In this document: positions 7,192 through 50,648 of the stretch, in pieces | Numbering within the stretch: the stretch's first letter is position 1 | Layout: the number at the start of each line of letters is the position of its first letter | From: Eledone cirrhosa | Lineage: Eukaryota | DNA: 64,000 nt | Direction: 5' to 3' | Assembly (NCBI GenBank): GCA_964016885.1 | Contig: OZ024742.1 | Span: 316,882,001 to 316,946,000, forward strand | Program-made: the position numbers and the translations under genes | The notes under the pieces: model-generated | What the model was told of the DNA's origin: nothing | Database searches by the model: none | The model's input: only the letters and a program-made list of their open reading frames with translations

Positions 7192-7230
7192 TGAACCTGA
7201 AGATTGCGAAAGCATGAAAGTACTTGTTCA
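7192..7230 (+). ncRNA. Minimal type I hammerhead ribozyme
   Basis: TGAAC-CTGAAGA-T-TGC(GAAA)GCA-T-GAAA-GTAC-TT-GTTCA. Helix I 5 bp, helix II with GAAA tetraloop, palindromic helix III AGTACT, CUU cleavage triplet. Confidence 0.85.
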
Positions 7231-7718
7231 ATTAACACTTAGAATTTAATATTCTATCATACTATTTCATTACAATACCATTATAAATTTTAAAGGATTG
7301 TAAATAAAACGGGTAAATCAGACAAAGTTGGAATTCCTCTTATTAATATATATATATATATATATATATAAATATATATATATATATATATAAATATATA
7401 TACGTAGATAAATCTACCAACATGTACGGTAGTGTCCAATCCGTATGAAGAACTCAATGTAATCCGAATATCTTGAAAAGAGATGTATTCAAACAATTTT
7501 TTTGGTGAAAATTAACGGAAAACAGAGTCAAGATAAATTAATAAAATAATAAATAAACAAAGAAACAGTTCCTTATATTAAAAAATTCATCATTTTACGA
7601 TCGTTTCTAGGATATATATGTTAGTGTTGGTATGCATATCCTATAGATCTATGTAAAATTTTTACAAACTATCAGAGGGAATATACATATCTACACATAT
7701 ATATGGTGTCTTCTGAAA

Positions 7719-7856
7719 TCATTATTTCTGAAGACAGCATATATATGTGTAGGTATGTATATTCCCTCTGATAGTTTGTAAAAATGTTACATAGATCTAT
7801 AGGATATGCATACCAACACTGACATATATATCCTAGAAACGATCGTAAAATGATGA
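7719..7856 (+). ncRNA. Type I hammerhead with ~100 nt extended helix II (family L)
   Basis: TCATTATTT/AAATGATGA helix I, CTGAAGA core, long self-complementary insert, GAAA-CGATCG-TA. Lies in the fold-back 7543-7910. Confidence 0.7.
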
Positions 7857-8530
7857 ATTTTTTAATATAAGGAACTGTTTCTTTGTTTATTTATTATTTT
7901 ATTAATTTATATATATATATATATATATATATATATATATATATATATATATATATATATATATATATATATATATATATATATATATATATATAGGAGG
8001 GTGTTGTACGTGCGTCATAGACAGTTTTAATTGCCGAAAGTATAAAAACGTCGAACTAAATGCATTTTAAAATTTGTTTTTTCTTTCTGTGATCTGATTA
8101 CAATAGGAGTTCACTAACATTTTTCTGAATTTGTTCATATCAGCTACCACGATCTATTTTAAAACTATCTCTATATCTCGTCAAAACAAATCAACGTTAT
8201 ACAAATACACAAACTTACTAATACTCACACACATATTGATATATCTATACACACACACACACCCATATATATATATATATGCAAGTATGTATGTATACGT
8301 ACATACATATATGTATACAGAAGTACAGTAGCATGTATATATATATATATATATATATATATATATATATATATAGATAGATACAGGCACACATAAATAT
8401 GTACGTATCAGTTTAGCGAACATTTATTATAATGTTCGCTTTGTTCGTTTGTAAACAAACGGACAGCCTGATTTATGCCGTACGGTGTTAAGGCAACCAC
8501 GTCACCTTTTTGTTCAACACTGACACAGGA

Positions 8531-8573
8531 ACGATGTACTAGTTTCAAGCTTGTTAGCTATCGTCAGCACCGT
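8531..8573 (-). ncRNA. Minimal type I hammerhead (family T, copy 1)
   Basis: Minus strand ACGGTG-CTGACGA-T-AGCT(AACA)AGCT-T-GAAA-CTAG-TA-CATCGT. All three helices pair and the cleavage site is GUA. Confidence 0.9.
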
Positions 8574-9040
8574 ATACCCTTCTGCCAGATAGTTGAACGT
8601 TCGAAAGTATATACTTTCCTTATGAAAATTAACGGCTGAGCAGCCTAATTTGCATATCGAGTGAGTTCAGTCGGCCAAGCGCACCGAAAACGATAAATAG
8701 ATAGAATAGAATGAAACGAAATTTCATTTCTCACTGTTAGTACGGCACTTACTTAAATGCAAGTATGTATGTATACGTACATACATATATGTATACAGAC
8801 GTACAGTAGTATGCATATATATATATATATATATATATATATATATATATATATATATATATATATATATATATATATATATATACATACAGGTACACAT
8901 ATATATATATGTACCTATCAGTTTAGCGGACGTTTATTATAACGCCCGCTTTGTCCGTTTGTAAACAAGCGGACAGCCTGATTTATGCCGTACGGTATTA
9001 AGGCAAACACGTCACCTTTTTGTTCAACACTGACACAGGA

Positions 9041-9083
9041 ACGATGTACTAGTTTCAAGCTTCTTAGCTATCATCAGCACCGT
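9041..9083 (-). ncRNA. Minimal type I hammerhead (family T, copy 2)
   Basis: Same fold, core CTGATGA. Confidence 0.9.
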
Positions 9084-47024: not shown

Positions 47025-47200
47025 ATGTGGGAGCCCCTACATGGACACACTAGAAGAGGAAGACCAAGGTTAACGTTATATTGATGCCCTAAGGACAGAC
47101 ACTGGTCTGTTGGAGACGCAGGACATGGCAGCGATAAAGAGGGACAGCGACCGCTGGAGAGAACTCGTCCATGGATCTCGGGAATTTTACCCGCCCTAGA
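47025..47200 (+). mobile_element. RTE-like LINE extreme 3' fragment
   Basis: WEPLHGHTRRGRP...DRWRELV, a typical RTE C-terminus. Confidence 0.6.
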
Positions 47201-47475
47201 ATATATATGTATTATATATATATATATATATATTTATATATATATATTATATATGTATTATATATATTATATATATATATGTATTATATATATAGATATA
47301 TATATACATATATATTCTAGAATATATGTATTATATATATTATATATATATATGTATTATATATATATATATATATATATATATATATATTTATATATAT
47401 ATATATATATATATATATATATATATATATATATATATATATATATATATATATATATACACACACTATATATAG

Positions 47476-47975
47476 AGAAACACACAGATACATGCGGACA
47501 CATACATATACATGGATATATCCACATATATCCTTGATTTAGTGGTACCAACCTCAACCGATGTTGCTCTATGAATAACTGTGACAAACCAATTCGAATG
47601 GATTATATTGATTCAGTATCAGAGCTATATAATACATTATGAAGAGAGAAGAAACATTAAATATAATTAGTAATAAGATATATCATACTTAAACTGCTTA
47701 CTTAGTCCCCGACTGCGTAGTTTCGTGGAATATTATGCAAAAACACTACATCACAGAGATATAGAATTTTTGTGCGGTCTGCCGACTTATCAAGAGGATA
47801 ACTCATTAAGGGTTTCAAAACACGTCCGTAAGATGCGAGATAGAATCCCGAAAGGCGGAGGGGGATCAGTCACGTGATACAGAGGTCAAGAAACAGAGCT
47901 AAGGGAGTTATAAACAATATATACACAAATTCTATATCTCTGTGATGTAGTGTTTTTGCATAATATGCCACGAAA
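47476..47975 (-). mobile_element. Diverged family U copy with U3-A8 HHR at 47706-47798
   Basis: Collinear with 43235-43670 but diverged. TTGATAA and GAAACTACGCAGTC are retained. Short inverted end. Confidence 0.75.
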
Positions 47976-48150
47976 TTAACCGATATAAAAGACACAGAAG
48001 CGAAAAGCGAAAACCAACCAAACAGTGAGTGAGTTCTGTTATTAATTCTGGCAATATTACACAAATATGACCCTCCCCAAGTATAACAATATTTGTTTCG
48101 ACACACGATTTCACATCAAAAACCTCGCAAAACTATATATATATATATAT

Positions 48151-49978
48151 ATTAGAAAGTGAGGTTTTTTTTACAAATTGAAAAATAACCGAGGTGTCCT
48201 ACACGAGTGAAAGTATAAAGAAAAAAAGATGAAATCGAAAATGCAACTGGAGTCTTATTTTTTTTAAAAATATATATATTTATTTGGTTCCTTTACCGGT
48301 TTCGCAGTTCTTCTGCTTTTCAAAAGTAGAGTTGAGATGGAGGGTCTGTGGTTTTTCTCACATATATATATATATAGGAAACCATATGGTCCATCTGGTT
48401 CCTTACCACAACTCCTTTGTTATAATATATTAACAATTAATTGATTAATTTAATTAGACAATTCTATTGATTCATTAATTGTTTATGTTTGTTCGATAAC
48501 TTCTAGTTGAATGCTTAATTCGGTTTGTGTAAAGGAGTTTTATTCCTTTGTTCCAAATTTTGAATTTGACCGCCAAAACCGGGGGTTAGGTAACCTTTGG
48601 GAAAACCATGTGCCTTATACCAGTGTTTACTGCTATTATTCACACCGGGGTGGACGAGAACGAAAGACTTGTTGACGAAGTAAATTCCCCTGTTCTATCT
48701 TCCAAAAACCATTAACTTGCAGACCCCTGGAAGTGGATTTTGTCGATTTCGGATTTACAGAAACCTAGCGGAGATATTATATATTATATGTGATGTATAT
48801 TATATAGTATATATTATGTGTTGTGTATGGTATCGACGCGACGGTCCAGCTTTGACATATTTTATCCTGAGTTCAGTCTTTTTCGTCGCTTTGGTCACTG
48901 CAGCCCGCCTATCGGCCGCTGTCTTCAATTTGCAAAGCTGTCTAAACGTAATGTTATAACTCTAGGGTTATATACACTATTGAGTGGTTAGCTGCACACC
49001 CAGACTGCATTCGTTAGCTTGGCTGCAACCAGAGCTTCGATAATGCTGTACTAAATTTTATTTATATATATATATATTAGAAATTGAGGTTTTTTTTACA
49101 AAATGAAAAATAACCGAGGTGTCCTACACTAGTGAAAGTATAAAGAAAAGAAGATGAAATCCAAAATGCAACTGGAGTCTTATTTGTTTTTAAAATATAT
49201 ATATTTATTTGGTTCCTTTACCGGTTTCGCAGTTCTTCTGCTTTTCAAAAGTAGAGTTGAGATGGAGGGTCTGTGGTTTTTCTCACATCTGGCTAATCTC
49301 TGAATGTTACTTGTTGTATATGGAAAAAGTGGCTCGAAATGCCAGGTTTATCGAGAAGTAATTTGATTGGTTGGTCAATAATTATAATAAATTTCGCGCC
49401 AGTTCGCGTGAATATGAACAATTCACTGAACCAGAACAATTCACCCATCCCATTTCTCTTAACCATTATCTTTTACTTATCATAAAATTCTCTAAAAAGG
49501 CTACAGAATGGATTTCCAAATAAGGGCGCGAAAATTTAATGGAAACTTGTTCACGTGACAGCCATAATTTCATTTATAACCAATCAAATTACGCTTATTT
49601 AAAAAAAAAGCCTTCGTGAGCCCCTTTTTTCAAGTAAAAAGAAATTCAAACACTCATATATGAAAAAACAACCTTTGACAACCCCCCCCCCTCTTATTTG
49701 AAGAACTATTGTAACGCGAACTGGCGCGAAATTTATTATAATTATTGACCAACCAATCAAATTACTTCTCGAAAAACCTGGCATTTCGAGACACTTTTTC
49801 CATAAAAAACAAGTAACATTCAGAGACCAACCAGATGTGAGAAAAACCACAGACCTTCCATCTCAACTTTACTTTTGAAAAGCAGAAGAACTGTGAAACC
49901 GGTAAAGGAACCAAATAAATACATATATTTAAAAGAAAAATAAGACCCCAGTTGCATTTTCGATTTCATCTTTTTTTC
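48151..49978. mobile_element. Family V: direct copies (~48151-48362, ~49076-49410) and an inverted copy (~49715-49978), each with a U3-A8 HHR
   Basis: TACTT-TTGAAAA-GCAG(AAGAA)CTGC-GAAA-CCGG-TA-AAGGA at 48288-48329 (-), 49213-49254 (-) and 49869-49910 (+). Confidence 0.8.
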
Positions 49979-50502
49979 TATATATATATATATATATATA
50001 TATATATATGAAAGACGTAAAATAAGAAAATTTTAAAAATTAAAAATTAACTTACTTACTAAAATGTTCACTCCAACTAATTAGTTTCTGTATCTTATAT
50101 ATTTGCTAGCATTAGTGTAAATCTGTGCGCATATGTTGGTAGATGTACTAATTCTCTCTCTTTCTCTCTATATATATATTTATTTATATATATATATAAA
50201 TTTTCGCTCTACATGACTGAAAACATGGCATATTAGCAGACTGGCTGATCATTAGTGTCTTCAGTTCTGATTACATGCCAAGATTACAACACAAGACCAA
50301 GAATGAGGGGCTGACATGGCTTTAAAAATGAGGCATGTTTGCATAATTGCAAACGAATCGAATGTTATTATTAATATTCGAAAAAGTCAGATTAAATTTA
50401 TTATATATATATATATATATATATATATATATATATATATATATATATATATATATATAAGTTAAAACAATGAAATAAAGATTGAAGTTAGTAGGAATAT
50501 AC

Positions 50503-50648
50503 TTCACTGCTTTACGATCGTTTCTATGTGATGATAATACATCGTACGCATATTTCGTTATCGATCTATGTAAGGTTAGTTACAAAATATCAAATAAGGA
50601 ATATATTTAACTACGTGTATATCGTCAACCATTGTCAAAAGCAATGAA
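50503..50648 (-). ncRNA. Long-helix-II hammerhead with U3-A8 core, related to family L
   Basis: TTCATTGCTT-TTGACAA-(~105 nt hairpin)-GAAA-CGATCG-TA-AAGCAGTGAA, with a 10 bp helix I. Confidence 0.75.

Follow-up and report, generated by a model that had tools for sequence, protein, structure and literature searches.

Hammerhead motifs between (TA)n tracts of an Eledone cirrhosa locus are probably for the most part truncated 3' ends of Penelope-like elements

Which elements account for the hammerhead-shaped motifs between the (TA)n tracts of a single Eledone cirrhosa locus? The locus is a stretch of 64,000 nt (assembly GCA_964016885.1, contig OZ024742.1, positions 316,882,001 to 316,946,000 of the forward strand), hereafter the window, and positions are counted from its first letter. 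An earlier note on this DNA had read the islands between the tracts as about ten hammerhead-bearing families without coding capacity, moved in trans by Penelope-like elements (PLEs) with remnants at 28.5 and 39.7 kb. We consider it probable that the islands are instead mostly cut-short, often mirror-image PLE 3' ends lying in (TA)n, and that three non-coding families likely use the same enzymes. The families are numbered F1 to F9 (Table 1).

The hammerhead motifs are real. A first descriptor for type I hammerheads matched the window 13 times, against 0.48 ± 0.74 matches (maximum 3) in 60 local dinucleotide shuffles. A strict descriptor, with a palindromic helix III and a long helix II allowed, gave 19 type I hammerheads against 0.05 (maximum 1) in 60 shuffles, and 22 matches after helix I was relaxed to 3 bp; the shuffle control proposed in the earlier note thus came out in favor of the motifs. 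When the palindrome demand was dropped, helix III was still palindromic in 77% of the matches (30/39, window plus 200 kb of other genome sequence) and in 4% of those in 20 shuffles, and hammerhead positions 3 and 8 covaried (26 C-G, 4 U-A, no mismatches). The 353 matches in 244 loci, a set in which the searched families are over-represented, had 23 different palindromes in helix III. A (TA)4 run was present within 250 nt downstream of 32 of the 33 strict hammerheads, compared with 24% of random positions. Both this and the descriptor matches agree with the view that these are minimal hammerheads of the PLE type sitting in (TA)n.

The sequence is AT-rich and full of hairpins, and Rfam, which the earlier note had suggested as a check, listed no hammerhead among 150 of its 247 window matches, nor among the 17 matches to 14250-14980, all of which were examined. 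Both points would suit arrays and palindromes that are satellite, Helitron or miniature inverted-repeat transposable element (MITE) type DNA repeats with an incidental hammerhead likeness. The two excesses over shuffles, the variable inner junctions and fixed, unequal outer ends described below, and the direct linkage to reverse transcriptase (RT) and endonuclease genes speak against such repeats. We regard the DNA-repeat or chance reading as ruled out by the shuffles and the linkage to coding PLEs, with next to no probability left to it. The microRNA matches in Rfam were dismissed as hairpin artefacts, as their scores were below gathering.

Within the window, the full motif was recovered at 7192, 7719, 8531 (four copies), 11030, 14285, 14914, 23327, 34388, 35673, 43466 and 50503. 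Other sites named in the earlier note were weaker, with a helix I of 3 bp at 48288, a mismatch within helix I at 15584 and a broken first helix I pair at 30759. Motifs were carried by 18 of the 42 islands of at least 150 nt between TA tracts, and not by most islands as had been stated; the count of more than 25 copies stands only if degenerate or truncated copies are included. The placement in tandem or inverted repeats was largely borne out, the motifs at 7192, 23327 and 50503 being single within the window.

The origin of the islands was sought by reading loci of each family and looking for coding sequence upstream in sense; the flanks read extended 1.5 kb, and in the genome searches the 40 best candidates were scored. 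The resulting assignments cover F1-F5, F7 and F8, with F6 (23327) and F9 (50503) outside them. For F5 (14285/14914), 24 of 25 loci led upstream into PLE2, a second Hydra-type gene. F2 (7719, 27078, 30415) led into the PLE3 endonuclease seen at 28.5 kb in 11 of 20 loci, through a 3' untranslated region (3' UTR) of 1.3 kb with an internal TA tract. Since the F2 islands run through this 3' UTR into the endonuclease, 26944-30486 is one inverted insertion. The 28.5-kb remnant is joined in cis to the islands at 27078 and 30415, and the island at 7719 is of the same family. The upstream part of F4b (15584/34388/35673) reached a fourth gene, PLE4, in 5 of 20 loci, with two further matches to other families, and F8 (48288) reached a Neptune-type endonuclease in 4 of 20. 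An F4a-like end, 81% like 11030, was located 1.4 kb below a fifth Hydra-type endonuclease (PLE5, locus L194), a placement based on flanks of fetched loci and not on F4a loci themselves. As judged from these linkages, the 7719, 11030-like, 14285/14914, 15584/34388/35673 and 48288 families are 3' ends of coding Hydra- or Neptune-clade PLEs. Most islands would then derive from at least six coding PLE families, five of Hydra type and one of Neptune type, as 3' ends that are 5'-truncated and in many cases inverted, and we hold the explanation as a whole with good, though not full, confidence.

Some support for about ten independent non-autonomous retrozymes moved in trans by nearby PLEs comes from the non-coding state of the window islands and from the tandem arrays of F3 and F7, with one hammerhead per unit. 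This general form of the idea is very improbable, given that F2, F4b, F5, F8 and the F4a-like subfamily lead upstream into endonuclease genes of their own and that 26944-30486 is a single insertion. Coding linkage rules it out for five families and leaves it standing only for F1, F3 and F7. The absence of coding capacity holds for the islands themselves and is misleading, as most are 3' UTRs of coding elements; the 14285/14914 island holds the last ~50 codons of its endonuclease. PLE machinery remains the likely mover, and mobilization in trans was the wrong reading for most families, which are ends of coding elements.

The PLE1 remnant at 39.7 kb had 57,362 first-look candidates genome-wide. 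Its window copy is frameshifted, and open frames of 713 and 709 residues were present in loci L031 and L032. PLE1-5 have the layout of a single short open reading frame (ORF) with RT plus a GIY-YIG endonuclease at the C terminus, as in these two PLE1 frames. The motifs of PLE1 (RWR, DKT, a CNCRNRVDC linker, CDLC, CKH) match the Hydra-clade definition as given in PMC8557442, in which CxxC and CxH surround the conserved E and N. The CxCx5C linker was also present in PLE2-5, with likeness to the Hydra alignment judged by eye. The Hydra-type families had 37-44% protein identity to PLE1 where aligned, and a homolog search returned relatives of ~700 aa with 37-56% identity; Pfam gave no match for the two window PLE fragments. 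The parent of F8 had a CGRSNCGTC linker, CKGC, YIG and two histidines (L240, L243, L234). By these endonuclease motifs it would be a Neptune-clade PLE; the RT was not seen, and the parent could also belong to Nematis. Naiad was rejected as a helper on account of the C-terminal position of the endonucleases found and of the lack of canonical hammerheads in Naiads.

Each family had two fixed ends ~45-165 nt apart. Both outer ends were visible in 46 inverted insertions among 130 loci (F1, F2, F3, F5, F7), of which 45 combined a long with a short end, one was long/long (ambiguous) and none was short/short. After removal of four loci repeating an insertion, by hand from coordinates, 41 of 42 insertions in the five families paired one long and one short end. 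The outer ends were fixed and unequal, the inner junctions variable. Both F7 ends also abutted (TA)n in contigs of another sequencing run. In the flanks of one F4b copy (L174), a non-inverted insertion had a direct repeat of ~60 nt on each side, which looks like a long target-site duplication.

Drawing on these observations and on PMC11167929, we propose that the GIY-YIG endonuclease nicks both strands within (TA)n. Two fixed positions in the interior of the RNA, downstream of the hammerhead, would serve as starts for reverse transcription, each for one of the target strands. The two cDNAs would usually stop early and then join head to head. As the hammerhead adjoins the start sites, even the shortest stub would keep it, which would explain the density of motifs. 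The PLE3 3' UTR (27971-28044) and the F3 unit (8815-8884) each contain a (TA)n tract of their own, so that each insertion would supply new targets, which may drive nested clusters. The near-absolute long/short pairing is a quantitative constraint on PLE integration that was not found in the PLE literature consulted.

F1 (7192), F3 (8531/30759) and F7 (43466) had no consistent coding parent in 85 loci: coding sequence upstream was found in 0/25 loci for F1, 0/30 for F7 and 3/30 for F3, the latter from three different neighbor families. They are likely non-coding passengers on PLE enzymes. The longest ATG frames were 54 aa (F3) and 28 aa (F7). The F7 monomer measures 593 nt (95-100% identity) and occurs in dispersed arrays, at least 10 units long and with divergent arms, at a spacing of ~596 nt; in these, unit 593 joins directly to unit 1. 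The F3 unit of ~480 nt includes its own TA tract, with an array spacing of 420-520 nt. In both families the units were head-to-tail, with a G+C content of 38-42% and one type I hammerhead each, and the diverged subfamilies in the window kept the unit layout, the core and end regions being among the best conserved. F1 was ~195-240 nt long; its 5' end was near-fixed, whereas its inner junctions varied. Among 59 matches and 25 loci, F1 occurred only in the form of monomers or inverted dimers, with no tandem repeats.

Head-to-tail arrays with a Penelope insertion signature make F3 and F7 look like retrozymes, so that the retrozyme reading is kept for these two. By analogy with the retrozymes of PMC7229834, dimerized hammerheads would cleave their transcripts and the products circularize, and F3 and F7 may be copied in the same way as the coding families, the RNA template being multimeric or circular and each of its units containing one hammerhead. 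F1 looks like a short SINE-like (short interspersed nuclear element) non-coding element, and its template would be a short RNA, linear and uncleaved; the independent status given to it in the earlier note is retained in this form. A sequencing-run search with F7 found no RNA run among the holders listed, which is no evidence either way. The summed contig depth over 43230-44300 in F7 was ~10^5 in run X2, of unspecified kind; this depth is no copy number and was not used as evidence. If run X2 were RNA, it would suggest strong F7 expression.

Several observations weigh against this interpretation of the islands. F1, F3 and F7 shared no clear sequence with six PLE 3' UTRs, with one weak match of 41 nt. 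With flanks of 1.5 kb and scoring of the best 40 candidates, a rare coding parent could have been missed. F4a forms short stubs with a near-fixed 5' end and yet belongs to a coding lineage, which weakens the call of F1 as non-autonomous. At its 3' end the abundant PLE1 has a motif of hammerhead shape in which CAGAAGA replaces CUGANGA (a U4-to-A core) and helix III is not palindromic. Whole-motif folding energies were no better than those of shuffles in all seven motifs (7/7, z -1.15 to +0.51), and helix II was present in the predicted folds, yet its advantage over shuffles reached p<0.05 for only 5 of the 11 representatives.

The many fixed-length F4a stubs with their coding relative, the flanks of 1.5 kb and the reading of top-scoring loci only would allow F1, F3 and F7 to be ends of unseen coding PLEs as well, through a strong RT stop for F1 and tandem runs of pseudo-long terminal repeats (pLTRs) for F3 and F7. 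This is unlikely, as none of the 85 loci led consistently into coding sequence, compared with 20-96% in the coding families, unit 593 of F7 joins unit 1 directly in arrays of at least 10, and the diverged F3 and F7 subfamilies keep the unit layout.

Whether the motifs cut is a separate matter. With a palindromic helix III, cleavage is predicted only as a dimer. Lunse et al. reportedly described dimeric PLE hammerheads. The fold could mainly be a handle for the PLE protein (recognition or dimerization) that rarely cuts, with F3 and F7 spreading from linear multimeric transcripts without circles. The altered core of the very abundant PLE1 and the F1 copies, which span the cleavage site from their near-fixed 5' end, point that way, as do published data in which RNA that had not been processed was the main substrate and ribozyme cleavage required protein (PMC11167929) and in which activity was low even as dimers (PMC4209133). 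Abundant circles from tandem metazoan retrozymes (PMC7229834) argue the other way, and the core covariation and the variety of palindromes point to selection on a catalytic fold; a mainly structural role therefore seems somewhat unlikely to us. Through its altered core, PLE1 is a natural variant with which the importance of cleavage could be tested.

The assembled genome comprises 3.0 Gb in 1,796 contigs. An exact pattern of the F4 group (3' half of the motif) occurred 30,346 times (control 1) and the 31-nt hammerhead core of F3 24,587 times (reversed control 0), which sets a floor of 54,933 copies, ~18,000 per Gb. In 20 arbitrarily placed 10-kb stretches, 14 matches were found against 0.17 in 30 shuffles, corresponding to ~207,000 genome-wide (bootstrap 102,000-327,000). 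This extrapolation is likely high, because the sample has six copies of a 20-mer of which the whole-genome count predicts two; scaling by that ratio gives ~70,000, so that the range is 70,000-207,000 depending on calibration. Reported numbers are 126,247 in the 28.2 Gb of the axolotl, ~4,500 per Gb (count from PMC7229834, size from bioRxiv 10.64898/2026.07.22.740005), ~5,000 in the mussel (PMC7229834) and ~9,000 in Xenopus tropicalis (PMC4209133). No published account of a density like that found here was met in the literature searched. In a bolder version of our interpretation, F3 and F7 are retrozymes whose arrays record Penelope insertion directly, the two target strands being primed without exception at different internal sites of an RNA that is circular or multimeric, in the genome with the densest hammerhead population reported for an animal, likely ~10^5 in total; this stronger statement is possible, and we lean against it.

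The system is real and of a known kind, at unusually high density; it is not a new kind of system. Hydra-clade PLEs with hammerheads, (TA)n targeting, inverted copies and a one-sided tail are described by Craig et al. (2021, PMC8557442), whose supplement includes Hydra-1_Obim of Octopus bimaculoides with its hammerhead. The earlier note had allowed that only novelty would fall in such a case, and this applies. Like PLE1-5, these published elements have a short ORF of RT and C-terminal GIY-YIG endonuclease with RW[K/R], DKT, CxCx5C, CxxC and CxH, insert into (TA)n, have a hammerhead near the 3' end and leave inverted, 5'-truncated copies with a one-sided tail (PMC8557442). Compared with the elements as described there, the present set differs in its number of Hydra-type families (at least five), in 3' UTRs 0.3-2 kb long, in tails of ~45-165 nt instead of 30-40, in helix II regions of up to ~100 nt, in the U4-to-A variant of PLE1 and in its tens of thousands of copies (PMC8557442). 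A search for octopus or cephalopod literature on retrozymes or hammerheads yielded only Craig 2021 as relevant, and the main text of an O. vulgaris repeat paper contained neither "ribozyme" nor "Hydra" (PMC13282606); Repbase, Dfam and supplements may already contain these families.

Published work already covers the minimal hammerheads of PLEs, the core with U3-A8 and motif pairs on opposite strands (Cervera and De la Pena 2014, PMC4209133). According to that account the metazoan motifs share with ours the type I topology, a short helix I, an extra base after A9, a palindromic helix III, the U3-A8 variant, opposite-strand pairs 100-700 bp apart and a majority of single motifs from truncated PLEs. 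The copy number here is far higher (at least 54,933 vs ~9,000 in Xenopus), and the palindromes measure 6-12 nt.

Animal non-LTR retrozymes, as reported in PMC7229834 and bioRxiv 10.64898/2026.07.22.740005, resemble F3 and F7 in being dispersed, head-to-tail, non-coding repeats of a PLE-rich genome, each unit having a single type I hammerhead. F3 and F7 differ from the 2020 set in having PLE-type minimal or U3-A8 rather than canonical hammerheads, and units of ~480 and 593 nt instead of 170-400 nt (PMC7229834). They fall within the scope of a 2026 preprint (51-972 bp, minimal hammerheads), in which a PLE origin of animal retrozymes is argued (Li, Clavereau and Pollet, bioRxiv 10.64898/2026.07.22.740005). 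The F3 and F7 arrays show PLE insertion anatomy directly. Non-autonomous Chlamys elements such as MRC1 are comparable to F3 and F7 as PLE derivatives without coding sequence that have pLTRs and insert head-to-tail in multiple copies; the MRC1-type elements have 3' sequence in common with their helpers and contain no canonical hammerhead (PMC8557442), whereas F1, F3 and F7 were unlike the six PLE 3' UTRs compared. In Poseidon PAc of Anolis, the tail is bounded by a pair of internal sites at which RT starts (Frangieh et al. 2024, PMC11167929). This element resembles the families here in these two fixed ends downstream of the hammerhead and in AT-rich targets; in the in vitro data of that paper the strands did not differ in start-site use, whereas the genomic copies here have the long/short pairing (PMC11167929).

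For annotation, a sizeable share of short "unknown", SINE-like and hairpin islands of this TA-rich genome are probably Penelope ends missed by Rfam. Through their insertion anatomy, F3 and F7 connect retrozyme-like tandem repeats with PLE enzymes; published support for this link consists of co-distribution and pLTR similarity. If the two are retrozymes, they would be ready-made short substrates for studying the role of PLE hammerheads and the formation of inverted insertions.

Table 1. Elements assigned in the window (HHR, hammerhead ribozyme motif).
Element	Position	Strand	Basis
Internally deleted PLE1 (Hydra-type), 5' end and first codons joined to 3' end	6614..6906	-	PLE1 aa 3-25 at 6862-6794; L031 3' end matches 6614-6793
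F1, ~195/240 nt, non-coding; minimal HHR 7197-7225, palindrome AGTACT	7150..7345	+	Near-fixed 5' end; 0/25 loci with coding parent
F2, inverted stub of PLE3 3' UTR; HHR 7728-7847, 101-nt helix II region; 131-nt tail on left arm only	7405..7907	.	11/20 loci to PLE3 endonuclease
F3 array, ~480-nt units; HHRs 8567, 9077, 9558, 10074; internal (TA)n per unit; short inverted arm	8281..10545	-	Descriptor and repeat comparison
F4a, inverted stub; HHR 11085-11037; core change in second copy	10989..11462	.	81% like PLE5 3' end
F5, PLE2 3' end, inverted and including the final endonuclease codons; HHRs 14319-14290, 14919-14948; 66-nt tail on left arm	14188..14984	.	24/25 loci
F4b, inverted stub of PLE4 3' end; HHR helix I interrupted	15537..15868	.	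Sequence comparison
F6, single HHR 23335-23368 located upstream of (TA)n; palindrome ACATTAGTGT, one pair being G-U	23320..23502	+	Descriptor
PLE3 (Hydra-type), single inverted insertion; two 3' UTR arms, HHRs 27257-27138, 30307-30426, internal (TA)n tracts, endonuclease remnant 28.5-29.3 kb	26944..30486	.	Linkage to F2 loci
F5/PLE2 truncated end, 3' half of HHR only	30527..30657	-	Sequence comparison
F3b, two units of a diverged F3 subfamily; both window copies have a damaged helix I	30660..31501	+	Sequence comparison
PLE1 3' end stub, variant HHR (CAGAAGA core in intact copies), tail	31502..31887	.	Sequence comparison
F3, inverted insertion; HHR 32105-32075	31916..32860	.	Descriptor
F4b, inverted insertion, long 3' UTR of PLE4; HHRs 34445-34395, 35680-35730	34345..35870	.	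Loci read upstream
PLE1, 5'-truncated, frameshifted; RT, CxCx5C linker, GIY-YIG endonuclease, ~0.9-kb 3' UTR	38669..41014	-	Translation, motifs
F7, 593-nt monomer, tandem and inverted arms; U3-A8 HHRs 43548-43471, 44140-44063, 44851-44928; long end 43226, short end 45005	43226..45005	.	0/30 loci coding
F7b, diverged F7 subfamily; HHR core and both end regions most conserved	47468..47978	-	Sequence comparison
F8, stub, 3' end of Neptune-type PLE; U3-A8 HHR, 3-bp helix I	48153..48361	-	Loci read
F8, inverted insertion; HHRs near 49248, 49875; 67-nt tail on left arm	49078..49978	.	4/20 loci reach endonuclease
F9, HHR 50638-50513, U3-A8, 11-bp helix I, 107-nt helix II region; related to F2	50461..50730	-	Sequence comparison

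The window also contained other repeats. A family of 570-710 bp, 89-97% alike, occurred within (TA)n at 1028-1737, 12690-13277 and 33688-34320 and also beside L031, with no descriptor match. A very common short palindromic element adjoined (TA)n at 14092-14156, 15329-15448 and 61405-61570 and was present in many fetched loci; a weak, non-palindromic hammerhead-like match at 14051-14136 overlapped it. A hammerhead-like layout with a CCGATGA core was located at 12200-12290, and further inverted-repeat islands at 5005-5646, 11921-12420, 25786-26711 and 33520-33621. Two remnants of long interspersed nuclear elements (LINEs) at 56160-63700, 74% alike and with RVT_1 and zinc-knuckle matches in Pfam, are presumably L1/Tx1-like. 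C-terminal fragments at 637-1119, 37460-37690 and 37983-38563 had no Pfam match; from their motifs we take them to be LINEs of the restriction-endonuclease type. An abundant SINE-like repeat of ~190 bp was present at 16763-16952, 18057-18766, 28337-28547, 45533-45692 and 63905-64000, one copy of which interrupts the PLE3 insertion. An (ACT)n tract of 570 bp occupied 22544-23113.

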